A stretch of 33,919 nucleotides of DNA. Source: a virus. Taxonomy: Duplodnaviria; Heunggongvirae; Uroviricota; Caudoviricetes. The stretch lies in IMG/VR virus record IMGVR_UViG_2579778797_000012. One strand, written 5' to 3'. The notes under the pieces were generated by a model. The model ran no database searches. It saw only the letters and a list, made by a program, of their open reading frames with translations, and was not told the origin of the DNA. The translations under genes were made by a program, and so were the position numbers. Numbering within the stretch: the stretch's first letter is position 1; each line of letters begins with the position of its first letter. Of this stretch, positions 5,605 through 23,397 are shown one piece after another.

Positions 5605-8031
5605 ATGTCCAAAAATGAACGAATGGTGGGCATCAGCCGCAGAACACTCGTTAAATCTACCGCGATAGGTTCTCTGGCGCTGGCTGCAGGCGGTTTTTCT
5701 TTGCCGTTTACCCTGCGCAGTGCAGCAGCAGCGGTACAACAGGCCCGCGAAAAAGTGGTCTGGGGTGCCTGTTCCGTCAACTGTGGTAGCCGCTGTGCAC
5801 TTCGTCTACATGTTAAAGATAATGAAGTGACCTGGGTGGAAACTGACAATACCGGCAGCGATGAGTACGGCAACCATCAGGTACGCGCCTGTTTGCGCGG
5901 TCGCTCCATCCGCCGGCGTATTAATCATCCCGATCGCTTGAATTACCCAATGAAACGCGTGGGTAAACGCGGTGAAGGCAAATTCGAACGGATTAGCTGG
6001 GATGAAGCCCTGGATACTATCGCCAGTAGCCTGAAAAAAACCGTCGAACAATATGGCAATGAGGCTGTATATATTCAGTACTCTTCGGGGATTGTTGGCG
6101 GCAATATGACCCGCTCTTCGCCATCAGCCTCGGCGGTCAAACGCCTGATGAACTGCTACGGCGGTTCACTCAATCAGTATGGCTCCTACAGCACCGCGCA
6201 AATTTCCTGTGCCATGCCCTACACCTACGGCAGTAATGATGGCAACAGCACCACGGATATTGAAAACAGCAAGCTGGTCGTGATGTTTGGTAACAACCCG
6301 GCAGAAACCCGCATGAGCGGCGGTGGCATCACTTATCTTCTTGAAAAAGCGCGCGAGAAATCGAACGCCAAAATGATTGTTATCGATCCGCGATATACCG
6401 ATACGGCTGCTGGTCGTGAAGATGAATGGCTTCCTATTCGCCCGGGCACCGATGCCGCGCTGGTTGCGGGGATTGCCTGGGTATTGATTAACGAAAATCT
6501 CGTTGATCAACCTTTTCTCGATAAATACTGCGTCGGCTATGACGAAAAAACCTTACCCGCAGATGCACCCAAAAATGGTCACTATAAAGCCTATATTCTT
6601 GGTGAAGGTGACGATAAAACAGCGAAAACGCCGCAGTGGGCTTCGCAAATTACCGGTATCCCGGAGGACCGTATCATCAAACTGGCGCGTGAAATTGGCA
6701 CAGCAAAACCCGCTTATATCTGCCAGGGCTGGGGGCCACAACGCCAGGCAAACGGCGAACTGACTGCACGCGCTATTGCTATGTTACCTATTTTGACGGG
6801 CAATGTCGGCATCAGCGGCGGAAATAGTGGCGCGCGTGAATCGACCTATACCATTACCATAGAACGCCTGCCGGTGCTGGATAATCCGGTCAAAACGTCA
6901 ATCTCCTGCTTCAGCTGGACAGATGCTATCGATCATGGTCCGCAAATGACGGCAATCCGCGACGGCGTCCGCGGCAAAGATAAACTGGATGTGCCCATTA
7001 AGTTCATCTGGAACTACGCGGGAAATACCCTCGTTAATCAGCATTCTGACATCAACAAAACGCATGAAATTCTGCAGGACGAATCGAAATGCGAAATGAT
7101 TGTGGTCATCGAAAACTTTATGACCTCATCGGCAAAATATGCCGACATTCTGCTGCCAGACCTGATGACCGTTGAGCAGGAAGATATTATTCCTAACGAC
7201 TACGCCGGTAACATGGGATATCTCATTTTCCTCCAGCCTGTCACCAGCGAAAAATTCGAACGCAAACCGATTTACTGGATCCTGAGTGAAGTCGCGAAAC
7301 GTCTTGGACCTGACGTCTATCAAAAGTTCACAGAAGGTCGCACGCAGGAACAATGGTTACAACATCTGTACGCCAAAATGCTTGCCAAAGATCCGGCGTT
7401 ACCGTCTTACGACGAACTGAAAAAAATGGGTATCTATAAGCGTAAAGATCCCAATGGCCATTTTGTCGCCTACAAAGCATTTCGTGACGACCCCGAGGCA
7501 AATCCACTTAAAACGCCTTCCGGTAAGATTGAAATTTATTCCAGCAGGCTGGCGGAAATTGCCCGTACCTGGGAACTGGAAAAAGATGAAGTGATAAGCC
7601 CATTGCCAGTTTATGCCTCAACCTTTGAAGGCTGGAACTCCCCTGAACGTAGAACCTTCCCACTGCAACTGTTTGGTTTCCATTACAAATCCCGTACTCA
7701 CTCGACCTACGGCAATATTGATCTCCTGAAGGCTGCCTGCCGTCAGGAGGTGTGGATCAACCCTATAGATGCGCAGAAACGTGGGATTGCCAACGGCGAT
7801 ATGGTGCGGGTGTTTAACCATCGTGGCGAAGTTCGGCTACCAGCCAAAGTAACACCACGTATTCTCCCTGGAGTTAGCGCTATGGGCCAGGGAGCCTGGC
7901 ACGAGGCCAATATGTCTGGCGATAAAATCGACCATGGCGGCTGTGTGAATACGCTAACCACTCTGCGCCCTTCACCACTGGCGAAGGGAAACCCGCAGCA
8001 CACTAATCTGGTCGAGATCGAAAAAATATAA
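5605..8031 (+). CDS. ynfE: YnfE, Tat-exported DMSO-reductase-family molybdoenzyme catalytic subunit (putative selenate reductase)
   Basis: 808-aa ORF with a twin-arginine signal (SRRTLVKSTAIGSLALAAG), a Cys-rich N-terminal cluster (CSVNCGSRC) and full-length similarity to DmsA-type subunits. Confidence 0.9.
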   Translation: MSKNERMVGISRRTLVKSTAIGSLALAAGGFSLPFTLRSAAAAVQQAREKVVWGACSVNCGSRCALRLHVKDNEVTWVETDNTGSDEYGNHQVRACLRGRSIRRRINHPDRLNYPMKRVGKRGEGKFERISWDEALDTIASSLKKTVEQYGNEAVYIQYSSGIVGGNMTRSSPSASAVKRLMNCYGGSLNQYGSYSTAQISCAMPYTYGSNDGNSTTDIENSKLVVMFGNNPAETRMSGGGITYLLEKAREKSNAKMIVIDPRYTDTAAGREDEWLPIRPGTDAALVAGIAWVLINENLVDQPFLDKYCVGYDEKTLPADAPKNGHYKAYILGEGDDKTAKTPQWASQITGIPEDRIIKLAREIGTAKPAYICQGWGPQRQANGELTARAIAMLPILTGNVGISGGNSGARESTYTITIERLPVLDNPVKTSISCFSWTDAIDHGPQMTAIRDGVRGKDKLDVPIKFIWNYAGNTLVNQHSDINKTHEILQDESKCEMIVVIENFMTSSAKYADILLPDLMTVEQEDIIPNDYAGNMGYLIFLQPVTSEKFERKPIYWILSEVAKRLGPDVYQKFTEGRTQEQWLQHLYAKMLAKDPALPSYDELKKMGIYKRKDPNGHFVAYKAFRDDPEANPLKTPSGKIEIYSSRLAEIARTWELEKDEVISPLPVYASTFEGWNSPERRTFPLQLFGFHYKSRTHSTYGNIDLLKAACRQEVWINPIDAQKRGIANGDMVRVFNHRGEVRLPAKVTPRILPGVSAMGQGAWHEANMSGDKIDHGGCVNTLTTLRPSPLAKGNPQHTNLVEIEKI

Positions 8032-10525: not shown

Positions 10526-10639
10526 ATGACCACACAATATGGATTTTTTATCGATTCCAGCCGCTGTACTGGCTGTAAAACCTGCGAACTGGCGTGCAAA
10601 GATTTTAAAGTTGGTTACGTATCGTTTAAAATCAATTAG
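10526..10639 (+). pseudogene. ynfG: ynfG (4Fe-4S ferredoxin-type subunit), 5' fragment only; similarity ends about 10609
   Basis: MTTQYGFFIDSSRCTGCKTCELACKDFK matches the YnfG/DmsB N-terminus. The frame then reads VGYVSFKIN-stop instead of the expected DLGPEVSFRRIYEY..., and no remainder of ynfG is present downstream in the window. Confidence 0.85.
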
Positions 10640-10683: not shown

Positions 10684-10717
10684 ATGCAAAGCTTTGTAAG
10701 CCGATGCAAAGCTTTGT
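10684..10717. promoter_or_regulatory. Two copies of ATGCAAAGCTTTGT (10684-10697, 10704-10717), each containing the 10-bp palindrome CAAAGCTTTG; candidate protein-binding sites
   Basis: Exact 14-bp direct repeat spaced 20 bp start to start, in non-coding DNA about 75 bp inside the ynfG junction. Confidence 0.35.
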
Positions 10718-11054
10718 GTGTCTCACTTTTGTCCCAATACCAATCCGAATCCACCCTTTGTCATCATTGAGAAATGGCAAGGAAGAAAAGGATGTTACTG
10801 CACGATTTGACAAATCCGCCAGAGCTATCGCATACTGATCGCACTGAACAAATAAGCGGTCTCCGCACCCGATAGCTTTGCGGCTTTTTTATGCCTGCAA
10901 TTTGGCATAGTTACATCCGTACAAAGGTCGGGTGGAGAGGCGTAATACAACACCCGCAAGGGGAATATGCCCAGAGCTTCTTATTTGGCTCAGTTGACAC
11001 CCGACCGCCAGCTACTAACTGGCGGTTATAAACTAAACAAATAAGGAGGTCATC

Positions 11055-11339
11055 ATGACCAGTCAACTCATCCCCGTATTCAACGGTTCTATCTCAAACC
11101 AAGCAGCCCTTCTATGCAATGCTCGCAATCTACACGCTTTCCTTGGGGTTGGTAAACGCTTTGCATCGTGGATAACAGAACGTATTGCTGAATATGGTTT
11201 CGTTGAAAATCAGGACTATATGATTGCTTCCCAAATTCGGGAAGCAAAAGGTAGAGGCGGTCACAACCGCAAGGAATACCACCTCACCCTCGACACAGCC
11301 AAAGAGCTTGCGATGGTTGACGACTGCGTCCAATACTGA
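11055..11339 (+). CDS. Short AntA/AntB-type antirepressor-domain protein (94 aa), paralog of the next gene
   Basis: MTSQLIPVFNGSISNQAALLCNARNLHAFLGVGKRFASWITERIAEYGFVENQDY... resembles the AntA N-terminal domain. Strong RBS (AAGGAGG, 11043-11049). The C-terminus (YHLTLDTAKELAMV) is shared with the downstream paralog. Confidence 0.5.
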   Translation: MTSQLIPVFNGSISNQAALLCNARNLHAFLGVGKRFASWITERIAEYGFVENQDYMIASQIREAKGRGGHNRKEYHLTLDTAKELAMVDDCVQY

Positions 11340-11588
11340 CTATACTCCGCGCCGAGGCCTCGAAAACCTCCCAAAAGCGGATTAAACCAACCCCGTCAGT
11401 GTTGGATTTTTTATGCCTGTTATTCAGTGATAGCACAGTGTGCGGTCACATCCCCGATCAATGTCGGGAGGGCGACGAATACAACACCCGCAAGGGGAAT
11501 AAGTCCGCGGTATCTTTTGGGCCGTTTCGAGCCTCCCGGCACCACATCTTGTGGTGGCATTTCTCGAAAAAAGCCAAAGGAGGTCATC

Positions 11589-12218
11589 ATGACCACTCAA
11601 CTCATCCCTGTGTTTGAAGGTACAATCTCAAATGAACCTACGCTTCTGGTGAACGCGCGTGATTTGCATGGATTTTTAGAGGTAGGTAAAGATTTTTCTA
11701 ACTGGATACGGGCCAGGCTAAACGAGTATGGATTCGTAGAAAATTTAGACTACATTCTATTTTCGCCAAATTTGGCGAAAACTCCAGGCCGCCGCCGCAA
11801 GGATTACCACCTCACCCTCGACACAGCCAAAGAGCTTGCGATGGTTGAACGTAACGAAAAAGGCCGCCAGATACGCCGCTACTTCATCGAGTGCGAAAAG
11901 AAACTTCGCAACATTCAGCCAGTACAAGCAGAACCACAGCCGCAATTCACAGCCGAGGAAATAATCCTCCTCTGCTACATGCAGCTCTGGATGGAAAAAG
12001 CCCAGGACCTTAGCAAGCAGCTGTACCCCATAATGAAAGAGCTGAACTCCTCATACACGAACAAGCTGTATGACATTGCGTTTGAGACTATCTACATGGT
12101 GACGAAGAACAGAGATGTGCTACTGAGAGAGGCGGCACGGCTTGACCAGTCGAGTTTCGTAGTTCAGCGGGCCAGACCAATGCTGAAAAGCCTGCGGGCA
12201 AGACAATTTGAATTCTGA
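11589..12218 (+). CDS. AntA/AntB-type antirepressor-domain protein (209 aa from the RBS-supported start)
   Basis: MTTQLIPVFEGTISNEPTLLVNARDLHGFLEVGKDFSNWIRARLNEYGFVENLDY... RBS AAAGGAGG directly upstream of the ATG at 11589. The track ORF starting at 11427 is an RBS-less upstream extension. Confidence 0.55.
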   Translation: MTTQLIPVFEGTISNEPTLLVNARDLHGFLEVGKDFSNWIRARLNEYGFVENLDYILFSPNLAKTPGRRRKDYHLTLDTAKELAMVERNEKGRQIRRYFIECEKKLRNIQPVQAEPQPQFTAEEIILLCYMQLWMEKAQDLSKQLYPIMKELNSSYTNKLYDIAFETIYMVTKNRDVLLREAARLDQSSFVVQRARPMLKSLRARQFEF

Positions 12219-12222
12219 TACC

Positions 12223-12247
12223 AAAGGAGCTTCGGCTCCTTTTTTTA
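12223..12247 (+). terminator. Rho-independent terminator after the second antA-like gene
   Basis: GGAGC-TTCG-GCTCC hairpin (12226-12239) followed by a 7-T run. Confidence 0.7.
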
Positions 12248-12414
12248 TACCTGAACGACAACGCCGCTGAAATCGAAGAGTTAATACAATAAAGAGAAGA
12301 GCTCAGTACATTAGATAAACATTTTTTATCATTATCTCATTGCCTTTATTCAAAAAAATAGTTACATAACGTTACTAGGTAAAATGCAAACCCTCGCTAT
12401 TTTTATCAGATTGT

Positions 12415-13641
12415 ATGCCGGTAACTATAACAAAAATCAGAACTGGAGAAGATGTTTTGTCAGCAGCCATTCACCGCATTGAATGGTTGTTTGAAACATT
12501 CTCTTCTGTATGTTTATCTTTTTCTGGCGGTAAAGATTCCACTGTACTTTTCCATCTTGTAGCCGAAGTGGCCTACAGGAAGAAACGTCGTTTTTCTGTA
12601 TTGTTCATTGACTGGGAAGCCCAGTATCAATGCACCATTGATCATATACAGAAGATGCGGATGATGTACCAAGATGTAACAGATACCTTTTACTGGGTTG
12701 CACTTCCCCTGACGACAGTAAATGGTGTCTCGCAGTTTCAGCCTGAGTGGATATGCTGGGAGCCCGGTGTAGAGTGGGTTCGACAGCCACCGGAAGATGC
12801 TATTACTGATATGGCGTATTTCCCCTTTTACCGCTACGCCATGACTTTTGAAGAATTTGTCCCAGCTTTTTCTTCCTGGTTCGCAAGTAACCAATGTAGC
12901 GTGGCAATACTGACTGGAGTCCGCGCGGATGAATCTCTTAACAGATTTATGGGACTGGTTTCCCAACGAAAACTGAGATATGCAGATGATAAACCCTGGA
13001 CCACGGCGTCACCTGAAGGTTTTTACTACACCATGTATCCGCTGTATGACTGGAAAACCAACGATATCTGGGTATATAACGCTAAAACCTGTGCAATCTA
13101 CAATCCTCTGTATGATTTGATGTACCGTGCAGGCATTCCTCTACATAATATGCGTGTCTGTGAGCCTTTTGGCCCGGAACAGCGTAAGGGACTATGGCTT
13201 TATCATGTTCTGGAGCCAGAAACTTGGGCACGGATGTGTGAACGAGTATCTGGTGCTGCCAGTGGGGCTCTTTATGCCAATGAAAGCGGGGCCTATTTTG
13301 CCCTGCGTAAACGGATGTCAAAACCATCCCATCATACATGGCGCAGCTATGCGTTCTTCCTGCTGGACGTAATGCCGGAAAGAACGGCTGAACACTACCG
13401 CAACAAGATAGCAGTCTACCTGCGCTGGTATCAGAACCGGGGATTCCCGGATGATATCCCGGATGAACAGGAAAATGATCTGGGCTGCCGGGATGTTCCC
13501 TCCTGGCGACGTATTTGTAAGACTCTCATAAAGAATGATTTCTGGTGCCGAACGCTCTCCTTCAGCCCCAACAAACCCCGGCACTATGAACGTTACCTGC
13601 AGCGTATGAATGAAAGGAGGAAGGAATGGGGAATTCTGTGA
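12415..13641 (+). CDS. ibrA: PAPS-reductase-like (PP-loop ATP pyrophosphatase fold) protein, IbrA/YbdN-like
   Basis: 408-aa ORF with the PP-loop motif SFSGGKDS near the N-terminus and a long C-terminal extension. Overlaps the downstream ParB-like gene by 16 nt. Gene symbol assigned by family resemblance only. Confidence 0.6.
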   Translation: MPVTITKIRTGEDVLSAAIHRIEWLFETFSSVCLSFSGGKDSTVLFHLVAEVAYRKKRRFSVLFIDWEAQYQCTIDHIQKMRMMYQDVTDTFYWVALPLTTVNGVSQFQPEWICWEPGVEWVRQPPEDAITDMAYFPFYRYAMTFEEFVPAFSSWFASNQCSVAILTGVRADESLNRFMGLVSQRKLRYADDKPWTTASPEGFYYTMYPLYDWKTNDIWVYNAKTCAIYNPLYDLMYRAGIPLHNMRVCEPFGPEQRKGLWLYHVLEPETWARMCERVSGAASGALYANESGAYFALRKRMSKPSHHTWRSYAFFLLDVMPERTAEHYRNKIAVYLRWYQNRGFPDDIPDEQENDLGCRDVPSWRRICKTLIKNDFWCRTLSFSPNKPRHYERYLQRMNERRKEWGIL

Positions 13642-14270
13642 CACCAGAGGTGGAGGTGCTGAGCAAGATGATTCGACAGTACTTCAGTCAGGAACAATCT
13701 GAAGAGAAAACCATACAGGCCCTGAACCATCTCCGCTGCGTACTCCATGAGATCAGCCCCTTTGCTCAAGAACCAGTGGACTGTGTGCTGTGGGTAAAAG
13801 CGGATGAAATTGTCGCTAACGATTATAATCCCAATGTCATGGCCCCAAGCGAAAAAAAATTACTGAAACAATCTCTGGAAAAAGACGGTTTTACTCAACC
13901 AATTGTTGTTTCGGAAGAAACAAGCCATTACCTGGTGGTGGATGGTTTTCATAGGCAGTTACTAGGTAGAAGAACAGTTACTGGAAAACGCCTGAAAGGC
14001 TGGCTACCAGTAACCTGTATTAATCCAGACCGAAAGGGACAAACCTCACGTATTGCCGCGACTATCCGACATAACAGAGCCAGGGGGAAACACCAGATAA
14101 CCTCAATGTCTGATATTGTCAGAGATCTTTCACGTCTTGGCTGGACTGATGAACGTATCGGAACAGAACTGGGGATGGACCAGGATGAAGTTCTGAGGTT
14201 AAAGCAGATTAGCGGGCTAACGGAGTTATTTCAGCAGGCAGATTTCAGCCCTGCATGGACTGTTACATAA
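13626..14270 (+). CDS. ibrB: ParB/sulfiredoxin-fold (ParB-like nuclease domain) protein, IbrB/YbdM-like
   Basis: 214-aa ORF with a DGFHR motif (VVDGFHRQLLG) typical of ParB/Srx-fold proteins. Strong RBS AGGAGG at 13615-13620. Translationally coupled to the upstream gene. Confidence 0.6.
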   Translation: MGNSVTPEVEVLSKMIRQYFSQEQSEEKTIQALNHLRCVLHEISPFAQEPVDCVLWVKADEIVANDYNPNVMAPSEKKLLKQSLEKDGFTQPIVVSEETSHYLVVDGFHRQLLGRRTVTGKRLKGWLPVTCINPDRKGQTSRIAATIRHNRARGKHQITSMSDIVRDLSRLGWTDERIGTELGMDQDEVLRLKQISGLTELFQQADFSPAWTVT

Positions 14271-14358: not shown

Positions 14359-14883
14359 CTACCTCAGATCACCTAATAATATATCAAGATTATTTTGCGC
14401 ATTAATGCTATTCGCCATTACTGTTGCTGCTTCTGGCAACTTTCCAAGAGCAATAAATATATTCTTAAGGCTGATTGGAATTGATGAACCATGCGGATCG
14501 CGCCACTCACCGCAAATTCTGTGAGTTTCATCACAAAGCCTGAACGCATCCCAACCTCCATATTGACCAAAAATTATGTCCATTGACTCTATTTCTGCGG
14601 GCGATAACTCCCCCAGCTCATCAACAGAAGAAAATGTACGCCACATTTCAACCTTATGATCCGCTACATCAGATATCCATGATTCCCACGGACTGTACTC
14701 GTTTTCACTTCCATCCTTAACCAAAGAATATGTCTGCGATAAAACGGGTCCTTTGTTCATAGAGAAATAATGATCACCACTAATGGGAAAACCATACAAC
14801 TCCATTGCTTTGCGGTCAGAGAGATACATCAGCTTAATGAAACGCATAGATCCGCCATGTTTTTTCAGCAAATACGCTGCCAT
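14359..14883 (-). CDS. DUF4065 (Panacea/SocA-like) domain protein
   Basis: 174-aa ORF. FIKLMYLSDRKAMELYGFPISGDHYFSMNKGPVLSQTY fits the conserved KLqKLLY...GPV core of DUF4065 antitoxin-like proteins (from memory of the family profile). No strong RBS at the annotated start. Confidence 0.5.
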   Translation of the reverse strand: MAAYLLKKHGGSMRFIKLMYLSDRKAMELYGFPISGDHYFSMNKGPVLSQTYSLVKDGSENEYSPWESWISDVADHKVEMWRTFSSVDELGELSPAEIESMDIIFGQYGGWDAFRLCDETHRICGEWRDPHGSSIPISLKNIFIALGKLPEAATVMANSINAQNNLDILLGDLR

Positions 14884-15033: not shown

Positions 15034-18000
15034 TTAATCCACTCCCACTTTTTTGTTGTACTCGCGGTTAAAGCGATCCACGGCAACCTTCATATCCCGC
15101 TCTACCGATTTCACCATCGCCGCCTGCTGCGCCAGACTGAGAGAACTGTCGGCATAAATGGCATCGCGCTGTTTGCGCAAATCCTTCAGTCTCTTCCGGG
15201 TATCCTGCATAAGCCCGTTCATCAACAATTTTCCGTTGTTCTCGTCAATGAACGCCGTTCTTTCTGCACCGGTCAGACTCTTCAGCTCTGCGTGATACTG
15301 CGCAACCTCTGTCATCCGGTCGTACATCTTCTGCTGGTCTGCATACGGCATCACCTCACCCGAAATTTTCCCCAGGAAGGGCACCTGCTGCTCCGGTATA
15401 TCAATACCGTTCAGCGATTTCACCGCCGCATCTGTGGTTTTGGAAATGAAGCGCCCTGTCCCTCCGGAGATATAGTCAATCCAGAATTTCAGCGATTCCG
15501 GTGTGATATCCACCGCGCCGGGACGATACTGGCTGCCACCTGAGAACGCATTCAGCCAGGATGCAAACGCCTTGTACGCCTCAGGCGTTGAACGTCTGCC
15601 CAGCTGGCTGTCCGGTTTCGGTGTGCCAAATGGCATGTTCTCCTGGTAAATCTGCGCCCCCATGAAGTTTTCATTCATGGCAAGGTTCGCAAACGGACGC
15701 AGAATGGTCGGCGCTGCATTTTTCAGCAATGCCCCGGACAGTGTTTCCGACGTTTCACTGCCCACAGGACTGAATGCCCCCAGGATACCACCGACAACAT
15801 TACCGGCAGCACGTGAAGCAGTCAGGTCGCCCGCTGCCACACCTTCAGCAGTATGCCCGAGCAGGAAGAAAACGTTGTACCCGTAAGGCAGAGGAATACT
15901 CCAGTACTCTCCGGCCTTGCCCCCGAACACCGATTTCATAATGACGAGGTTACGCTCTTTCACATGAGACGGCACCTTGTCATACCAGTTAACCCCGTCA
16001 TCATCCTCCCCCGCAACACTGCGGTTAAGCGAGCCAAGCAGATAACCCGCTCCCACAGCTGCAAGCGCGATTTTCTGCGGTACATTGAGATTCTTCCAGC
16101 GAAGGCGCTCCGGTAACGGCCCGTCGCCATTAAGATGTCCGAGCGTTCTCACCAGGTTTGCGGTCCCCTGAATGCTGGCGTTGGCAAACATATACAGCGA
16201 GTTCATCAGCGCTCCCTGCTCACCACGACGGTTAAAGTTCACCGTCATGTTTTTGGCAAGAGATGCCGCCTGCTGGCGTGACAAACCGGCATCACGGGCG
16301 TGTTTATAGGCAGAAAGACGCAGAGCGTTTTCAACCGCGCCGTTGGCATCCTCGACCAGGTTCAGGAACGAATGCCATGCACCGATACTCTGGCCTTTCC
16401 ATCCTCCCTTCGCCAGCGATACAAGGCGATCCATTTCCTTCTGCTGGCCTTCAAGGTCACCCATGTTAAACCAGCCGGTTTTACCTCCGTCCTCAACAAA
16501 CTCTTTCCACACCTTCTGCCACTGCGCACCGTTGCCCGTGAGGGTTTTACCACGCAGACTGGCGTATACGGCAGACATGGCAGACCGGCTGTCTTTCACC
16601 ACAGCCAGGGCGGATAAGTTATCCAGCCCTTTCAGTTTACCGTCGCTCCTTCCCTGCTCCGCCTTCAGGTTCATCACCGCCGTCTGCACGTCACGGATGA
16701 AGTTACTGACCAGGAATTCCGGGTTATACGACGTGTTCACCGTTGCCAGGAAGCGGTTAACTTTCCCCAGCGTGCGGATTACGGCGTTACTGGTTTCCGG
16801 TCCCATATTCTTCATCGCACGCATCAGGCGCGGATCATGGAGTTTGATGTAGTACGTTTTGCCGTTCTTTTTGGTGGTGAAGTACCGGTCTGCCATCATT
16901 GCCATCGGTACAGGACGTTCGACAACTTCGTGACGGGTTTCACCGGTTTCCGGAACAACACGCTCTGCAATCGCACGCATGGTGTCCGGTCGCTCATTGG
17001 TGAATACCTGCCAGTAATCCTTGTCTGGATTATCCTGTACCAGTTTCAGGAAGGCGTTACCTACTTCATTTTTGCGATTGCGGATCAGCGATTCGCTCAA
17101 GTCCTGTATCGCCTGAGTGGACGGAGACTGTGCGCGGGATGCACGCCCCATGGCCTGCCTGCTTTCACGTCCGCCGATAGTGAAGCCTTTACCTGTACGG
17201 GGCAGTGACACCACACCGTCAACATCCTGGCCTTTCAGAGGAACGTAGTAACGGTAGGCGTTCTGCCAGGCATCCACCACACCGCTCTCTTCCAGTCCGG
17301 CCTCACGGATAAGCTCACGGCGACGGGCCAGCATATCGTCAACAATCCCTGCCAGACGGTCATACTGTGCCTGTTTGCCACTGTTACGCACACGCTGCAT
17401 GATTTCCGCCGCTTCCGCGTTGGTCATCCCCGAACCGCCGTCCGGCATTTTCGGGTTGATTTTCGCGATATGCGCGTTACGTTCCGGCGCGTGACGGGCG
17501 TAGAGGTACTCATCCAGATCGGCCTGCGCAATTTTGTAGTCCGCCAGTAATTTAGCCAGCGGCTGAACATAGCGCTCCTTCATCACGTTCAGGTCGTTTT
17601 CCGCCTTCCCGTGGAAGAGTTCTTCCGCCATATAAGCGTTGTTACTGTCGTCTATTTTTCCGCCAGTTTTACGGATATTCTCCTGAACAGCTTTCAGCAC
17701 CTGGAATTTATCCTGCATCTGGCGCACAAAACGCGATGCAATTGTCTCTTCCGGTGTCAGACTGCTGGTACGGGAGTAATGCGGCCCCTTGCGAATATCT
17801 TCAGGATAGAGTATTTTATCCGCAGAGCCGCGATAAGAATGTTCCCCTTTGGGCAATTGGAGTCCTCTGTGCAGAAGGTTATCGCGGCTTAATTTTTCTC
17901 TCCGGTACAACGTTAACCCGGTCATTTCCATACTCTTCAGTTTTTTTCCATTTTCTGTACCGTAAACAGAAGCTACCTTGTTGATTTCCAGACGCGACCG

Positions 18001-21000
18001 GACAGCCTTCATGTGTACCGCTGACACCACCGGATCACCATTTTTATCCACGGCATCAAGCAGCATCACAACCGCATTTCTTTCTGTCGCTGAGTGGTAA
18101 ATTGCATCCGGATCGTGCATCAGTTCCGGTAGTCTCTCGATAACATCCATCGGCACCACATGTTTCACACCATTGGTGGCCTTACGCACAGTGTCGCGGG
18201 AGATAACCAGCGGCAAATCTGGTGCGCCAAGGTGACGCAATACCGGCGGCGTACGCCCGATGTTTACCGTTAAATCCGTTGAGCGCAGAGACTTCATCAT
18301 TCTGGCAAGGTCATCACGATAACGCTCGCCCTCACCTTCCGGCACTTTGAACGGATCAGGCTTACCGCTACGGGAGTACTGAGACGATGCGCCAGCGCCA
18401 TCCTCACGCGGCGTGTAACCTTCCCGCACACGCTGGCCTAACGTGCGAATAGTTTCGCGAACAAGTCTGATATCGTTCAGCTCTGTCGGCTTCAGTAACC
18501 CCGTGCGACGCAGTACCCCTTTGACCAGGGCAACAACACGCTCCCACGCCGCCACAAATTTATTCGGCTGTTTCTCCGCCATATGTGCCAGAAATTCACC
18601 CGCCTGCACTTCCGGTGATTCCTTACCATAAGACGCATCAACCTTACGCCAGGCTTCACGGATGGTGGCGTTATCACTGTCACGGGTTTTCAGCACGGTC
18701 TTAATAATCGTCTGATATTCCGCTGGCGTGACTACATGCTCCATTGCATGGTGGATAATCTCGTGACGCAGCTTCTCGCGAACGGTCCGCCCGTCAGGAA
18801 TGTTATCCGCCACCAGGACAATTTCACGTTTATCCGGACGATAGAACGCATGCCCCCTGCCGTAACCGTCGAACGATTCACCCGCCAGCGCTTCAGCCTC
18901 TTTCTGTGACTTCACCACGCGGACCTTCAGGTCACTGTCCTTAATGCCACTCATCACGCCACGGGCAACCGCTTCAACCTGCGGGACCGGGCTGCCTTTG
19001 GCTTCCGCACTGCGGTTAACATCCGAAATGAGATTGCCTTCAGGTGTGCGGGTCACGCCCTTACGGGAATAAAACGCAACGCCCTTGTCCGTCTCACGGG
19101 TTTTCAGCGTACTGAACAGGTGATCGAATGCATCACGAATACCGCCATCCAGTTCCGCATTCGTCGGATAAGCCCAGGTGTTATCTGTGTTGTGCTCAGG
19201 TGCCTTACGGATATTGACCAGATAATCATTCTCCACGCCAGCCGTACGCGCTTTATCCTGAACATAACGCTCAAAGGCACGCGCCGCCATTTCAACATCC
19301 GTTGACCAGTACGGTTTTGAGCGCACCTCATCGAGAAGCGCTGAACGACGCGGCATGTCACTGCTGTTGATCGCTTTCATCACGCCTTTAAACGCGTCGT
19401 AAACCTCCTGACGTACCGGATATTCCGCATCAACATATCTGCCGTCTTTAAATACGCGCCCGGCACGCTGTGCTTCCGTCATATAGTCGCCACCTGACGT
19501 GATCTTCCCGTCAGTGGAAACATCATAACGACCAAAATAATTATCCAGTGAATGGAACCATTCGTGGGCCAGCGCCCCCGGTCCGTTACCTTTTGTCAGG
19601 TTGATTGCCACCTCACCCGGCTCATAGTGTGCCGCCGCCTTACCCTTACCACGGGCACCAAAAGCAAGCCCAAGACGACCGTTCAGAGAAAGCGCTTTTG
19701 TCGGCACGTTCAGCACATCAGCCAGGTCATGCAGCGAGTCATAAGCCCGGTTCAAATCAGCCTGACGACGCGGACCTTCCACATAATTACCAAACTGCAC
19801 ACCACGAAAACCAAACGCATCACTGAACTGCTCCGGCGAAACATCCCCCTTGCGGCGTTCTGGTCCGGTACGATCGCGGTTGGTGGCGTTACGCTGCTCC
19901 TCACGCGAAATCTCCCGCATCTCCTTCACATGACGAACAAGCTCATCACGATGTGAATCAATGTACTTACGCGCATCACTGGCTGACTTAAAGCCACCTC
20001 TCACCCGCATTTTGTTTTTGCCATAAGCGATAAAAATATCGCCACTGCGGGTATTCCGGTAAACGTCAAAGCGGATTTTGTCATCCGGTGACGGTGCCGT
20101 TTTTTCATCTCCTTTCGCCTGTGACTTTTCCTCCAGCTCTGCAAACCAGACTTTCGCCTTTGTCAGTAATTCATCCCTGCTTTCCGAGAAAAAGAGGTTA
20201 GTCCCCTTATTGTCCTTATTGCGCAGTGAATAAAGTTTCTGTGGCGGATCGTAACGCTTCCCTCCTGCCGCCTGATACACACCCGATACCACCCGATAAG
20301 CAGAAGCCTTGTCCATCTGTGAGGGTGGCAGAGTGCGTAACAGTTGCCAGGTATCCGCGTAACGGGAGGGCATTCTGCCTTCCATCCATTCTGCGAGGCG
20401 TTTCGCGCTGACCGTTCCGTTCAGCATTTCCGATACACTGTGTCGTACTTTTTTTACGCTCTCCCCCCAGCCAGCCGTATTGTGTTTCGTCTTCGCCGGA
20501 ATATCGCTACGATACAGCGCTATCATTGCCAGGGTGTCAGCATCAGCCCCTTCGCTCGCCAGTTTTGCGTAGTCCGGTTTCGGGAACAGTTTGCTCAGCG
20601 GCTGCGTGGCATAATCCCTGTCTTCCAGCGTTTTACCCAGTGTTTCAGCAAGCTGTGCATAACGGTGTTTTGCCGCGCCCTTAATTTCTTCACCAAAGTC
20701 TTCAATTTTCGCACCACGCGCCTGCTGGTGAGTGCTCGGTTTATCTACCGGCATCGGCACCTCAGTATCCGGAACATCGGTTATGGTCTGGCGATTATCC
20801 CCGGTCTGTCTGCGTGCTTCTGCCTGCTGTGCCAGTTCCGGAAGGGAGTCACGAACCATACGAGGGAGTGATTCAGGCTGTGGCATATCAACCCCACGCT
20901 GACTTTCAGGTGCAGGAAGTCCTTCACGCACTGGTGCTGTGGCGTTCTGCTCATCCGGTGACGGCAGACCACGACGAACCGGTTCGCCCTCCAGTATTTC

Positions 21001-23397
21001 CCCCCGGCGACCAGCGGCATTTTCCGGTGCCTGCGCACGTCCTTTCTGGAAACTCTGGCCCTTCACCTCACCGGTTGTGGTAAAACGACCACCACGTCCG
21101 GCCTGATTTTCATCCGGCGTACGCGCCACTTCTCCCGGTAACGGATATCCCTGTCCGGGATGAATATCGCCGGGAGCGGGAAGGCGTGGACGCTCAGTTA
21201 ACTCCTGAGCTGTCGGACCGGCATCACCTTCAGCCATCTGTGAACGCACCAGCTCTTCCGCCGTCGGCACGTTGCCACGGGCAAGGCGGGCCTGCACTTC
21301 TGTATCATCTCCCGTAAAACCCCGGAATCGCGGGTCACGCATGAACGCTGGCTGCTCCATCGGATCAGCATCAGCAATACGCTCTCCGTCAGCCAGGGTG
21401 TTAATGGTTTCCGTTGCCACATCTTCAGAGAACGCAGGATTATCCATTTCAACGGCATACTGATTCTCACCTTTCTTCACTACGGACGGTTTCAGGCCGG
21501 TGGCGCTGGCATTGCGAAAAACATCGCTACCCATGGCGCTTTTCTCATCCGTGAAATAACGGTTGTCCGGACGCACCTTTTCAATGCGTTCTGCTGGTCT
21601 GGACGCACCACTCCCGTTAATTTCAATACGAACTTCATCCGGATCGCGGAACCGCACCGTCGGGTAAATACTCCCGTCGCCATCATCCGCATTTTCCGGC
21701 TGTGGCTGTGCCTCCGGTCTGGCCTCCTGCTGAGGGCGAAGCACATCACGGATAGCCTGTAACTGCTGCTCTTCAGTATCAGTACGCCCTTCCTTCAGGC
21801 TGAGTTTTCGGTATTCCTCAAGCAGTTCAGGGCGCGGCTTCGCCTTCAGCTCATCCATTACCGCCTGTCGCTTCGCCTGTTCATCCAGTTCATTCAACAG
21901 CTGGCTGGCGGCTTCCCGGCGATGAACGGCAGACGTGTCTCCCTCATGTGCCATATCCGCATCAGCATACTGTTCCAGAAGCTGCTCGCGATTCATCCCC
22001 TGCATGGATTCACGATGCTGTGCCACCGGATCAACCGGTTCGGGTTGCGGGGCTGCGTCGTCCTGCTGCACGGTTTCAGCATCACGCATGGCTGCTTCTT
22101 CTGCGGCCTGACGTCTGCCACGATATCCGGCAACCGCACCGAATGGAGCCCCCATCGCAGCACCAAAGGCTGCACCTTCGATCGTTGCGTCAGCCACGCC
22201 CTCCCACGGTGACACATCCATTCCGGCGGTCTCACGCAATGCCGTGTTTTCCTGATAGCGCGAATAGGCGTTCTGTGCCCCGTTAATTACGCCCTGTTCC
22301 GTGGCATTTCTGACAATGCCGCTTTTAACGGTCTTCGCTGTGCCTCGTGTCACCAGATTAAACAGTTGTGCGTCACCCAGTTTTGCCGCCATGGCATTCA
22401 CAGCCAGCAATTCAGGATCGGTTGCCAGCTGCGCGCGCACCTCATCGGCAACACGCTCTTTTGCCAGGTCCATTTTCTGGCGATCAGTAAGCTGTGCGTG
22501 CTGTGGATCTGCATCAATTGACAAAAACGTCTGCTGAAATTTCGGTGACTGCGCCAGCTCAGCGTAATCCGCATTAAGAACAGCATCTGCTGCCGACATT
22601 GCACTCTGCCCCTGTGCACTGGCTGTGGAATGGGTGATCAGGCCCGCATGGAAGAAATCCGTCATTTTTTTATCGACAGCTTCTGCTGCCAGTGCCGTGG
22701 CTCTTTCCGGCTGCACTCCTGCCGCGATGTATTTTTTCTCCAGCCCGGCGGTCAGCGTTCTTTTCAGTGCGACCTGTCCCACCTTTCTAACCACACCGCC
22801 AGCAACCAGATCAGGTACAAGCGCACCAATCAGGTTTACACCCTTCGTCAGCAAGACCGCAGAATCATCATAGCCTTCACTCATTGGCGTGTTCAGCGCA
22901 CGAACAGCACCCGGCGACATCTGATCTGTCAGCCATTCATCCGAGGCTTTGGCACCATCACTGACTGCCTTACCGGTTGCTTTCAGACCTTCACCGACAG
23001 TATCAGTGACCGCGTTTTTACCTGTTCCATCGGGAATGTTTTTAATCGCATCTCCAACAGAAGGTGGCGCGCCCAGTTCCTTTTGCGTGGAGGAAGGCGG
23101 CATGTAAACATCCGTCATGAAAGACGACAACCCGGCAAGCGTTTTTACAGGATTATTTACAAATCCATCACCGAGTCCACGGACCATCTCCCCTGTTCCC
23201 CGGACGGACTGGGCGAAACCTTTACCCATTGTTGGCAATACATCACCGAGGCTGAACGATGTGCTGTGATCAATGGCATTCTGCGGGTTGCTGAAAAAAT
23301 CCTGCCAGTAATTTTCTCCCGGCTGCTTAATGTTCAGGCTGCTGCGGTTCTGGTTACCCAATTGCGCTTCAGGGCGCTGCTCATCTGAAAAAGCCAT
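15034..23397 (-). CDS. Giant multidomain protein (2,787 aa) with two HExxH metallopeptidase-like motifs; putative phage polyvalent or effector protein
   Basis: Single uninterrupted ORF with GGAG 8 nt upstream of the ATG. HEWFH at nt 19552-19566 (about residues 1278-1282) and HEIIHH at nt 18748-18765 (about residues 1545-1550). Low-complexity A/Q/E/P-rich N-terminal third. Function inferred only. Confidence 0.6.
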   Translation of the reverse strand: MAFSDEQRPEAQLGNQNRSSLNIKQPGENYWQDFFSNPQNAIDHSTSFSLGDVLPTMGKGFAQSVRGTGEMVRGLGDGFVNNPVKTLAGLSSFMTDVYMPPSSTQKELGAPPSVGDAIKNIPDGTGKNAVTDTVGEGLKATGKAVSDGAKASDEWLTDQMSPGAVRALNTPMSEGYDDSAVLLTKGVNLIGALVPDLVAGGVVRKVGQVALKRTLTAGLEKKYIAAGVQPERATALAAEAVDKKMTDFFHAGLITHSTASAQGQSAMSAADAVLNADYAELAQSPKFQQTFLSIDADPQHAQLTDRQKMDLAKERVADEVRAQLATDPELLAVNAMAAKLGDAQLFNLVTRGTAKTVKSGIVRNATEQGVINGAQNAYSRYQENTALRETAGMDVSPWEGVADATIEGAAFGAAMGAPFGAVAGYRGRRQAAEEAAMRDAETVQQDDAAPQPEPVDPVAQHRESMQGMNREQLLEQYADADMAHEGDTSAVHRREAASQLLNELDEQAKRQAVMDELKAKPRPELLEEYRKLSLKEGRTDTEEQQLQAIRDVLRPQQEARPEAQPQPENADDGDGSIYPTVRFRDPDEVRIEINGSGASRPAERIEKVRPDNRYFTDEKSAMGSDVFRNASATGLKPSVVKKGENQYAVEMDNPAFSEDVATETINTLADGERIADADPMEQPAFMRDPRFRGFTGDDTEVQARLARGNVPTAEELVRSQMAEGDAGPTAQELTERPRLPAPGDIHPGQGYPLPGEVARTPDENQAGRGGRFTTTGEVKGQSFQKGRAQAPENAAGRRGEILEGEPVRRGLPSPDEQNATAPVREGLPAPESQRGVDMPQPESLPRMVRDSLPELAQQAEARRQTGDNRQTITDVPDTEVPMPVDKPSTHQQARGAKIEDFGEEIKGAAKHRYAQLAETLGKTLEDRDYATQPLSKLFPKPDYAKLASEGADADTLAMIALYRSDIPAKTKHNTAGWGESVKKVRHSVSEMLNGTVSAKRLAEWMEGRMPSRYADTWQLLRTLPPSQMDKASAYRVVSGVYQAAGGKRYDPPQKLYSLRNKDNKGTNLFFSESRDELLTKAKVWFAELEEKSQAKGDEKTAPSPDDKIRFDVYRNTRSGDIFIAYGKNKMRVRGGFKSASDARKYIDSHRDELVRHVKEMREISREEQRNATNRDRTGPERRKGDVSPEQFSDAFGFRGVQFGNYVEGPRRQADLNRAYDSLHDLADVLNVPTKALSLNGRLGLAFGARGKGKAAAHYEPGEVAINLTKGNGPGALAHEWFHSLDNYFGRYDVSTDGKITSGGDYMTEAQRAGRVFKDGRYVDAEYPVRQEVYDAFKGVMKAINSSDMPRRSALLDEVRSKPYWSTDVEMAARAFERYVQDKARTAGVENDYLVNIRKAPEHNTDNTWAYPTNAELDGGIRDAFDHLFSTLKTRETDKGVAFYSRKGVTRTPEGNLISDVNRSAEAKGSPVPQVEAVARGVMSGIKDSDLKVRVVKSQKEAEALAGESFDGYGRGHAFYRPDKREIVLVADNIPDGRTVREKLRHEIIHHAMEHVVTPAEYQTIIKTVLKTRDSDNATIREAWRKVDASYGKESPEVQAGEFLAHMAEKQPNKFVAAWERVVALVKGVLRRTGLLKPTELNDIRLVRETIRTLGQRVREGYTPREDGAGASSQYSRSGKPDPFKVPEGEGERYRDDLARMMKSLRSTDLTVNIGRTPPVLRHLGAPDLPLVISRDTVRKATNGVKHVVPMDVIERLPELMHDPDAIYHSATERNAVVMLLDAVDKNGDPVVSAVHMKAVRSRLEINKVASVYGTENGKKLKSMEMTGLTLYRREKLSRDNLLHRGLQLPKGEHSYRGSADKILYPEDIRKGPHYSRTSSLTPEETIASRFVRQMQDKFQVLKAVQENIRKTGGKIDDSNNAYMAEELFHGKAENDLNVMKERYVQPLAKLLADYKIAQADLDEYLYARHAPERNAHIAKINPKMPDGGSGMTNAEAAEIMQRVRNSGKQAQYDRLAGIVDDMLARRRELIREAGLEESGVVDAWQNAYRYYVPLKGQDVDGVVSLPRTGKGFTIGGRESRQAMGRASRAQSPSTQAIQDLSESLIRNRKNEVGNAFLKLVQDNPDKDYWQVFTNERPDTMRAIAERVVPETGETRHEVVERPVPMAMMADRYFTTKKNGKTYYIKLHDPRLMRAMKNMGPETSNAVIRTLGKVNRFLATVNTSYNPEFLVSNFIRDVQTAVMNLKAEQGRSDGKLKGLDNLSALAVVKDSRSAMSAVYASLRGKTLTGNGAQWQKVWKEFVEDGGKTGWFNMGDLEGQQKEMDRLVSLAKGGWKGQSIGAWHSFLNLVEDANGAVENALRLSAYKHARDAGLSRQQAASLAKNMTVNFNRRGEQGALMNSLYMFANASIQGTANLVRTLGHLNGDGPLPERLRWKNLNVPQKIALAAVGAGYLLGSLNRSVAGEDDDGVNWYDKVPSHVKERNLVIMKSVFGGKAGEYWSIPLPYGYNVFFLLGHTAEGVAAGDLTASRAAGNVVGGILGAFSPVGSETSETLSGALLKNAAPTILRPFANLAMNENFMGAQIYQENMPFGTPKPDSQLGRRSTPEAYKAFASWLNAFSGGSQYRPGAVDITPESLKFWIDYISGGTGRFISKTTDAAVKSLNGIDIPEQQVPFLGKISGEVMPYADQQKMYDRMTEVAQYHAELKSLTGAERTAFIDENNGKLLMNGLMQDTRKRLKDLRKQRDAIYADSSLSLAQQAAMVKSVERDMKVAVDRFNREYNKKVGVD

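Follow-up and report, generated by a model that had tools for sequence, protein, structure and literature searches.

Two co-oriented genes for proteins with an AntA domain lie one behind the other in IMGVR_UViG_2579778797_000012, a 33,919-nucleotide stretch of Caudoviricetes DNA (the window, at its full length), and the leaders in front of them resemble each other. Gene 1 (11055-11339) encodes 94 amino acids (aa) and gene 2 (11589-12218) 209 aa, just as the original prediction, made from the sequence alone, had stated; features of the window lie on the plus strand unless noted otherwise. The locus raises the question of what these leaders are, and whether they place both genes under one control. 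The original prediction had described them as a duplicated and diverged element of about 100 bp, suggesting shared regulation. Our analysis makes it likely that each leader is instead a portable cassette of fixed order built on the RNA family sRNA-Xcc1, which would act as an antisense RNA lock on the neighbouring antirepressor-type gene.

To identify the leaders, we scanned the whole window with Rfam. Results showed exactly two matches, both to sRNA-Xcc1 (RF02221, gathering score 53) and both covering the full model (positions 1-87 of 87). Copy 1 lies at 10926-11014 (69.1 bits, E = 1e-10), with helix P1 at 10926-10934 / 10998-11006, the invariant core at 10945-10965 and a tail GCCA after P1 at 11007-11010. 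Copy 2 lies at 11463-11548 (73.4 bits, E = 9.6e-12), with P1 at 11463-11471 / 11532-11540, the core at 11479-11499 and a tail ACCA at 11541-11544. The idea of a private duplicated leader was therefore abandoned, because both copies belong to this family above its threshold. The shared core and start context were borne out by three exact blocks, TTTTTTATGCCTG (10885-10897 and 11407-11419), AATACAACACCCGCAAGGGGAATA (around 10944-10967 and 11478-11501) and AAGGAGGTCATCATG (11043-11057 and 11577-11591), and the alignment of the RNA parts stood well above background (71% identical, z = 8.3). By chance, 0.01 occurrences of the 21-nt core pattern would be expected in the window, which contains two. 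Common to both leaders is the family's core, a three-way junction with AUACAA-ACCC-GNAA-GGGGAA, and the GCAA-tetraloop mini-hairpin suspected earlier corresponds, as CCC-GCAA-GGG, to the GNRA-capped CCC/GGG helix of the Rfam model, which is invariant across 64 aligned sequences. In the same 64 sequences P1 showed compensatory changes in nine predicted pairs (one pair is AU in 36, UA in 15, GC in 4 and CG in 3), which marks the leader as a conserved structured element; window copies 1 and 2 also differ from each other in a compensatory way in P1. RNAalifold on the MAFFT alignment of these sequences returned no consensus for helix P3.

The RNA family itself is thus already known. It has been in Rfam since about 2012 and is annotated routinely in genomes of E. 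coli, Xanthomonas, Xylella, Haemophilus, Aeromonas and aphid-symbiont phages. In APSE phages it precedes an ORF6N gene and in the commonest Xanthomonas integron cassette symE, and a Xylella island carries five tandem copies about 381 nt apart. It was found as an integron-borne 88-nt RNA in X. campestris by rapid amplification of cDNA ends and Northern blotting (PMC2996969), and in enterohaemorrhagic E. coli (EHEC) EDL933 it is abundant and ribosome-poor (PMC5331693). The searchable literature assigns it no mechanism, and describes for it no promoter, upstream target copy, hairpin with U-run or target at the Shine-Dalgarno (SD) sequence. The window RNAs are no different in themselves from known members; what is added here is these four elements, an architecture that is new as far as the searchable literature shows, and well supported. 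Discussion has so far treated sRNA-Xcc1 only as a possible virulence small RNA (sRNA) with predicted distant targets, and the present data give it a concrete, testable role.

To see which parts of the leaders are conserved, we collected relatives by an exact scan for 19 specified core bases, which yielded at least 120 stretches from species-representative genomes; the same kind of scan gave at least 120 stretches from IMG/VR viral contigs. Comparative counts below refer to the loci listed from these scans. The genome loci include Pseudomonadota, Desulfovibrionaceae, Bacteroidota, Acidobacteriota, Planctomycetota, Gemmatimonadota and Verrucomicrobiota. All 17 foreign loci that were re-scanned with Rfam scored above the RF02221 threshold, and the re-scan revealed extra copies. 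In the alignment, 18 core columns are invariant. The downstream open reading frame (ORF) was chosen by a preceding SD, and such an ORF was present in 111 of 125 cases, starting at a median of 91 nt after the core (interquartile range 86-101). Pfam domains of the 111 downstream proteins were Bro-N (24), Rha (11), SymE (7), AntA (6), P22_AR_N (5), ORF6N (3) and KilA-N (2), that is, mainly shuffled phage 'antirepressor-like' DNA-binding proteins and SymE toxins. Given this spread, AntA is only one among many exchangeable cargoes.

Two variable parts of the RNA change in step with sequences that lie beyond the Rfam model. The first, junction X, comprises about 8 nt just 5' of the P1 3' strand and pairs with a segment X' located 20-35 nt before the AUG; examples are TTTCGAG/CTCGAAA, TTTCTTAG/CTAAGAAA and GTTTACGAA/TTCGTAAAT. 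The second is the P3 loop, in which a variable stretch follows an initial anti-SD CU or CC. Over 6-10 nt this loop is Watson-Crick complementary to positions -17 to -9 of the downstream gene, a site made up of the first SD bases and the variable bases before them (examples CCTCTGTGTG/CACACAGAGG and TCCTGTAGC/GCTACAGGA). A second copy of the target lies about 60-105 nt upstream of the RNA, usually followed by GCGG, and a small hairpin often exposes its X' segment (X'1) in the loop. Downstream of this copy, at a median of 45 nt before P1, most loci across phyla carry a hairpin with a variable stem and the loop CCCGNNAG, followed by 4-7 U and RYGCC. Covariation of its stem was read from the alignment, since RNAalifold gave no consensus because of MAFFT gaps. 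Farther upstream, 78 of 106 loci have TTGAC between -154 and -114 relative to P1, compared with 5 of 106 for the opposite strand; a -10-like hexamer accompanies it in 72 of the 78. The conserved unit thus starts with a promoter-like site some 120-150 nt before the RNA and takes in the target copy and the hairpin with its U-run; the shared leader of the original prediction stands, but its length of about 100 bp was too short.

The upstream hairpin invited two further comparisons. Its loop CCCGNNAG (10868-10878 and 11392-11400 in the window, and most listed loci) resembles the invariant P2 core CCCGNAAG(GGG). Pairing of the loop's CCCG with the P1 5' strand CGGG was considered and rejected for lack of covariation, because loci with an altered P1 (CGAG, CGAC) keep CCCG.

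We then measured how specific the complementarity is to each locus, taking the longest Watson-Crick stem of a segment with its own partner and comparing it with the partners of other loci. For the P3 region against -35 to +6 of the start codon, the cognate value was 6.08 and the non-cognate 4.27 (z = 18.7); for junction X against the downstream leader, 5.60 and 4.03 (z = 17.3); and for the whole antisense segment against the 160 nt upstream, 8.14 and 5.82 (z = 20). Reversed targets within each locus paired worse (p = 4e-9 and 1e-10 downstream, Wilcoxon; 2.5e-16 upstream), which excludes an artefact of base composition. Restricting the comparison to 30 dissimilar loci left 8.37 versus 5.63 upstream (z = 13) and 6.67 versus 4.61 downstream (z = 10.8), and none of 5000 permutations came up to the observed value; the cognate target ranked first, alone or in a tie, in 24 of the 30 upstream and 19 of the 30 downstream. 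Words common to the upstream and downstream regions were also longer within the same locus (7.33 versus 5.77, z = 8.1). The viral set, which had not been used in forming the hypothesis, gave the same picture in 33 dissimilar representatives (upstream 7.42 versus 5.56, z = 10.1; downstream 7.21 versus 5.12, z = 11.2; 0 of 5000 permutations). Downstream matches cluster at -17 to -9 of the AUG. These results show a locus-specific complementarity between the variable part of the sRNA and both copies of the target.

The same results bear on two other accounts of the family. In one, sRNA-Xcc1 acts mainly in trans on host or virulence genes that are not linked to it, a role put forward for Xanthomonas and Xylella, and its position before antA is incidental. 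This agrees with the framing in the literature and with the high abundance in EHEC. Yet the variable segments covary with the adjacent translation-initiation region and not with any common host target, the invariant parts are paired or structural, and the target lists published for distant genes are predictions only (PMC2996969; Xylella study); we regard this account as very unlikely. In the other, the RNA would bind and neutralise the downstream protein rather than its mRNA, as in type III toxin-antitoxin systems. The RNA does precede the gene with a hairpin between them, as in ToxIN, and some partners are SymE toxins; against this, the downstream proteins have many unrelated folds while the RNA core is invariant, and it is the mRNA sequence, rather than the protein family, that the variable RNA parts follow, which makes such a system extremely improbable here.

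Both cassettes of the window show the full order of elements. In cassette 1, a promoter-like site with -35 TTGACA (10807-10812), an 18-nt spacer and -10 CATACT (10831-10836) matches the consensus at 10 of 12 positions in a consensus scan, and the predicted transcript would start near 10843. The upstream target copy, a putative decoy, follows at 10843-10859 and consists of X'1 ACTGAA (10843-10848) and T1 CAAATAAG (10849-10856), then GCGG. T1 is identical to the downstream target at 11038-11045 and complementary to the P3 loop at 10980-10987. At 10863-10897 comes the hairpin (CCGCA / TGCGG, loop CCCGATAGCTT) with U6 (10885-10890) and ATGCCTG, the element that the original prediction had picked out as TTTTTATGCCTG; from its sequence we propose that this hairpin and U-run form the terminator of a short upstream RNA. 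The antisense segment of the sRNA (10980-10996) contains the P3 loop CTTATTTG (10980-10987) and junction X TCAGTTG (10990-10996), and is complementary to 11038-11045 and 11016-11022 downstream and to 10849-10856 and 10843-10847 upstream. A small hairpin (CCGCCAG / CTGGCGG, 11005-11025) follows the sRNA and holds X'2 partly in its loop and 3' arm; its stem covaries in related loci (CACCCAA/TTGGGTG, CTACCAG/CTGGTAG, CTTCCAG/CTGGAGG). The downstream target at 11016-11049 comprises X'2 TAACTGG (11016-11022) and T2 CAAATAAG (11038-11045). T2 lies at -17 to -10 from the ATG (11055), is Watson-Crick complementary to the P3 loop over 8 nt and overlaps the SD AAGGAGG (11043-11049).

Cassette 2 repeats this order with other letters. 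Its promoter-like site (-35 TTGACG 11317-11322, -10 TATACT 11341-11346; 10 of 12 matches in the consensus scan) falls within the final codons of gene 1, with a predicted start near 11353. The upstream target copy at 11354-11380 has a hairpin GAGG / CCTC presenting X'1 CTCGAAA (11359-11365), then T1 CCCAAAAG (11370-11377) and GCGG, and is complementary to X at 11525-11531 and to the P3 loop at 11513-11520. The hairpin at 11387-11419 (CCAAC / GTTGG, loop CCCGTCAGT), with U6 (11407-11412) and ATGCCTG, is the same motif as that at 10863-10897, and its stem shows compensatory changes both between the two cassettes and across loci. In the antisense segment (11513-11531), the P3 loop TCTTTTGG (11513-11520) pairs with CCAAAGGA at 11574-11581 (one G-U pair) and X TTTCGAG (11525-11531) with CTCGAAA at 11563-11569. 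After the sRNA, a small hairpin (CACCACA / TGTGGTG, 11540-11556), read from the sequence and found in all minimum free energy (MFE) predictions, is followed by GCATTTCT. The downstream target (11563-11583) comprises X'2 CTCGAAA (11563-11569) and T2 CCAAAGGA (11574-11581), the latter overlapping the SD AAGGAGG (11577-11583) of the gene 2 ATG at 11589.

Duplex energies were calculated for the antisense segments of the two cassettes, AS1 and AS2. For AS1 the energy was -20.9 kcal/mol on the downstream target of its own cassette and -15.8 on the upstream copy of that cassette, compared with -16.0 and -10.2 for the targets of cassette 2. AS2 gave -19.8 (own downstream) and -27.7 (own upstream), compared with -14.0 and -12.8 for the targets of cassette 1. 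Cognate duplexes are thus 4-15 kcal/mol more stable than cross pairs. The notion of shared regulation therefore survives only in part: both leaders are regulatory leaders with a common invariant core, but common control is not indicated, as the mRNA-pairing segments differ, cognate duplexes are favoured and each RNA thus appears suited to its own gene. Because their specificity segments differ, the two cassettes are probably separately controlled locks, cassette 1 guarding the AntA-domain-only protein and cassette 2 the protein with AntA and P22_AR_C domains.

Folding suggested how each lock might switch. In the MFE structure of the full cassette 2 transcript, the antisense segment lies on the upstream copy and the SD is free. 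When the RNA begins at P1, the loop pairs with T2 and the SD, X pairs with X'2, and the SD is masked; the sRNA of cassette 2 alone folds into the Rfam junction. After removal of its 5' part, cassette 1 likewise pairs its loop with T2 and the SD.

Taken together, these features suggest the following mechanism. A sigma-70-type promoter would drive a 5' RNA that holds the target copy (X'1 and T1) and runs into the hairpin and U-run, which we read as a leaky terminator; beyond it come the sRNA-Xcc1 junction and the real target (X'2 and T2), which overlaps the SD of the AntA gene. The sRNA would be released from read-through transcripts, and the pair of G1 with C together with the N-CC(A) tail hints at RNase P processing, the route taken by C4 and CI RNA. 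P1 has 9-10 bp with G first, and C occupies tail positions 2 and 3 in 77 and 84 of 107 listed loci; RNase P processing, suggested in the window by the G-started P1 and the GCCA and ACCA tails, is only a lead. Once free, the sRNA would pair with the downstream target in cis or in trans, masking the ribosome-binding site and keeping the antirepressor-type gene silent. The upstream copy would compete for the antisense segment, either within the unprocessed precursor or as a short terminated RNA in trans, and so free the ribosome-binding site. The balance of termination, read-through and processing may then set an expression threshold for a potentially dangerous protein. If this is true, it would explain how many prophages silence antirepressor-type and SymE-type genes, and the real target of each family member becomes predictable from sequence alone, with due caution against assigning host or plant 'targets' to sRNA-Xcc1. 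Tandem cassettes would then be orthogonal, and the family would supply regulatory parts that are compact and reprogrammable.

Several points weigh against such a lock. About one fifth of the listed loci, for example L031, L068 and L113, lack clear complementarity, and the exact 19-base core pattern makes the sample neither exhaustive nor unbiased. In cassette 1, the full-transcript MFE structure does not pair the antisense segment with the upstream copy, the X/X' pairings are short (5-7 bp, with G-U), and X'2 is partly buried in a hairpin; MFE folding in general ignores pseudoknots. The upstream hairpin is a weak terminator by standard rules (5-bp stem, 9-11-nt loop), and the terminator scan did not flag it because a loop above 8 nt exceeds the rule of the scan. 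At this locus we infer the sign of the regulation, the choice between cis and trans action and the processing, and the invariant P2 module has no explanation in the lock model. In addition, Chen et al. in 2011 reportedly called sRNA-Xcc1 trans-acting and virulence-linked, to judge by the title of their paper.

The invariance of P2 could instead point to a purely cis-acting sensor, a riboswitch or protein-binding leader in which a P2 ligand or host factor sets the pairing of the anti-SD loop and the sRNA has no separate function. Its 18 invariant columns in a core nearly unchanged across phyla would fit a sensor, as would the fixed distance to the start codon, the anti-SD in the P3 loop and the alternative MFE states. 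We think it unlikely as the whole explanation, since it leaves the second target copy, the cassette's own promoter and the upstream hairpin with U-run unaccounted for, family members accumulate as discrete RNAs of about 88 nt, and the layout matches known antisense systems. Sensing in cis is compatible with the antisense lock as an added layer. In a bolder version, possible but doubtful, a phylum-spanning programmable lock of promoter, decoy RNA and processed antisense RNA is fitted by phages, integrons and islands to any hazardous gene, with the P2 module (AUACAA-ACCC-GNAA-GGGGAAU, no mRNA partner) as a receptor whose ligand, a host factor or small molecule, would determine the moment of opening. 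If so, host physiology would be coupled directly to antirepressor or toxin release and prophage induction, and tandem orthogonal cassettes would give a prophage several independently triggered outputs.

The antisense lock resembles systems known from other phages. In P1/P7 immI, the C4 antisense RNA is likewise encoded on the same strand upstream of an antirepressor operon, has two short recognition segments and a downstream copy over the ribosome-binding site, and acts in an allele-specific (hetero-immune) manner. Citron and Schuster are said to have described in 1990 a P1 target layout a1b1/a2b2, with copies on both sides of C4. RNase P processing and Rho-dependent polarity are proven for C4, whereas here they can only be proposed. 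Like C4, sRNA-Xcc1 has complementary sites upstream and downstream of it, the downstream one at the ribosome-binding site, but fold and conserved core differ, and the C4 model RF01695 gave no match in 10800-12400 even at E <= 10. In P1, C4 RNA blocks icd/ant expression (PMC8198154). In P4 immunity, a processed RNA from an untranslated leader pairs with seqA upstream and seqC downstream (PMC4825925), and this seqA-CI-seqC order has the same layout of target, processed RNA and target. CI works by premature transcription termination, unlike the sRNA-Xcc1 cassette, where translational masking is indicated because the downstream target overlaps the SD; the two RNAs have no similarity in sequence or covariance model.

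A third relative in logic is Gifsy-1 IsrK, a short RNA ending at a leaky terminator, whose read-through mRNA has a sequesterable ribosome-binding site; a stable processed RNA, STnc1160, lies downstream of the terminator, and the complementary IsrK turns on antirepressor translation (PMC4825925). The features of the IsrK/seqA type recognisable by sequence, namely promoter, target copy and hairpin with U-run, are present and conserved in the listed loci, and the orf45-anrP pair of Gifsy-1 is reminiscent of the coupled upstream ORF in Pseudomonas cassettes (L004, L007, L035, L060, L064 and others), where an ORF of about 30 codons extends into the start codon of Bro-N and its SD serves as the target. 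The full-transcript MFE structure of cassette 2, with its SD free, is the opposite of the Gifsy-1 default, and the isrK model RF01394 found no match in 10800-12400 at E <= 10. Homology to C4 or IsrK was accordingly rejected and only the same logic is claimed; we do not assign the RNAs to either family because the covariance models do not match. P22 ant/sar and SymE-SymR also apply antisense control to an antirepressor or the SymE toxin at the translation-initiation region, but sar and SymR are encoded on the opposite strand and overlap their targets, whereas sRNA-Xcc1 is encoded on the same strand, upstream, and is only partly complementary. With complementary blocks of only 7-10 nt on the same strand, it is not an overlapping antisense antitoxin of the type I SymR kind. 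By analogy, the sRNA-Xcc1 cassette may be read as a third structural solution to the P1/P4/Gifsy-1 problem. If true, the logic of P1 C4, P4 CI and Gifsy-1 IsrK would recur here in another fold and across far more hosts (at least seven phyla and many viral contigs).

We next consider the two genes that the cassettes would guard. Both proteins matched the AntA family PF08346 (curated cut-off 27), gene 1 with 89.8 bits (E = 1.8e-25) and gene 2 with 93.6 bits (E = 1.1e-26), confirming the family assignment of the original prediction. BLASTP aligned 55 of 89 residues as identical (62%, E = 1e-38), including the shared MT[ST]QLIPVF and YHLTLDTAKELAMV segments. Gene 2 alone carries P22_AR_C (PF10548, 33.4 bits against a cut-off of 22.4, E = 4.7e-8); a Pfam search found none in gene 1, whose protein ends at residue 94 with ELAMVDDCVQY, so the upstream gene is indeed the shorter. 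The gene 2 protein is 100% identical to the 'antirepressor protein' of Escherichia phage PhiR5_2, and 'antirepressor' is for both AntA proteins a putative name taken from annotation.

Segment identity between the two units is mosaic: 71% in the sRNA, 50% from the sRNA end to the SD (z = 0.5, background), 87% from the SD to codon 11, 63% in the AntA middle and 94% in the AntA end block. Within the last, 44 nt at the end of the AntA domain, encoding YHLTLDTAKELAMV, are 100% identical (11277-11320 and 11805-11848); this block could be a recombination joint, the result of gene conversion or under constraint at the nucleic-acid level. Pairing of the sRNA 5' strand with this coding block was dropped, as only 7 of 10 positions matched by eye. 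Homology between the genes ends at GGTTGA, precisely at the cassette 2 -35 (GGTTGA|CGAC...), so that the last residues of gene 1, DDCVQY, are encoded by promoter DNA.

A simple local tandem duplication in decay, in which shared ancestry alone makes the leaders alike and the 94-aa ORF is a nonfunctional leftover, is largely refuted and hardly credible by now. The Prokaryotic Genome Annotation Pipeline (PGAP) does mark gene 1 as an incomplete, truncated pseudogene, P22_AR_C is missing, and the homology breaks exactly at the next promoter. The number of synonymous substitutions per site (dS) between the two AntA domains is about 1.4, and the genes are thus old, diverged modules rather than a fresh duplication; moreover, the cassette recurs before unrelated genes in many phyla, and elsewhere a third cassette stands before a BRO gene. 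Nor does the short ORF look dead: among relatives of the 94-aa query of 165 aa or less, at least 12 variants, only 69-87% identical, preserve an intact ORF of 94-95 aa that closes with the same ELAMVDDCVQY, and one variant occurs on 866 contigs; the ratio of nonsynonymous to synonymous substitution (dN/dS) between two short-form variants is 0.34 at a dS of 0.54. Gene 2 and its L003 ortholog have a dN/dS of 0.08. Because of the diverged intact variants, this dN/dS and the presence of the same arrangement in the isolated phage PhiR5_2, we favour gene 1 as a maintained AntA-domain-only short form rather than a recent decay product, so that of the two origins first offered, a short variant, putatively dominant-negative, is favoured over fresh decay. 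Recombination with full-length genes via the conserved flanking blocks could be another cause of the open gene 1 ORF.

Arrays of cassettes are found at other loci too. In L003 (5617-6516, E. coli O22:H8 strain 154), a third sRNA-Xcc1 copy (5740-5830, 68.6 bits) precedes a BRO-family gene and is headed by its own TTGACAAATCCGC promoter, the same TTGACAAATCCGC as in cassette 1, making a three-cassette array; further arrays occur in L049, L091, L189 and L195. Homology of the window to this strain stops directly after the gene 2 stop codon, where an intrinsic terminator found by the terminator scan lies at 12223-12252 (AAAGGAGC-TTCG-GCTCCTTT followed by T7). Its TTTTTATACCTG (12241-12252) was considered as a remnant of a third cassette and rejected, being part of an ordinary terminator that merely resembles the cassette motif. 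In Xanthomonadales (L011, L021, L028, L073, L092 and 11 others), the cargo is an unannotated family of about 200-255 aa beginning MSTFDxDDLETxGYFLPEDSQ, for which Pfam gave no match. The sole actinobacterial match among those listed, L077 (Kocuria, a 406-nt low-coverage contig), is nearly identical to L070 (Cupriavidus) and is probably assembly contamination.

Both cassettes belong to the end of a prophage in an E. coli chromosome, which in the window runs through ynfE and ynfF to a remnant of ynfG (10526 to about 10609). The ynfG gene (4Fe-4S subunit, 10526-10612) is broken by the prophage after about 28 codons, and is the integration site of the phage in this strain, since the prophage end matches the complete phage PhiR5_2 (PV340546). 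From this end, the prophage carries the two co-oriented AntA-domain ORFs, ibrA/ibrB, a Panacea-domain gene and a 2787-aa LPD38 protein. The two-AntA block also stands at the end of the complete PhiR5_2 genome, and it is therefore part of a genuine temperate phage. Coverage of the 1.8-kb region reaches 80% or more in 36 complete E. coli genomes, and 560 of 5426 have parts of it. Downstream of both cassettes, 12415-14270 holds ibrA (PAPS-reductase and DUF3440) and ibrB (ParB-like). The SocA/Panacea-domain gene (14359-14883) and the LPD38 'polyvalent' protein gene (15034-23397) lie on the minus strand; the latter giant gene is intact and open in the window and frameshifted in strain G1/2. Between the ynfG/prophage junction and the cassette 1 promoter are two direct copies of ATGCAAAGCTTTGT (10684-10697 and 10704-10717), each with a perfect 10-bp palindrome CAAAGCTTTG, their centres 20 bp apart. 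They are the only two matches in the window at up to two mismatches, and at least two matches also arose in 6 of 100 shuffles; by their sequence, the paired copies look like operator sites.

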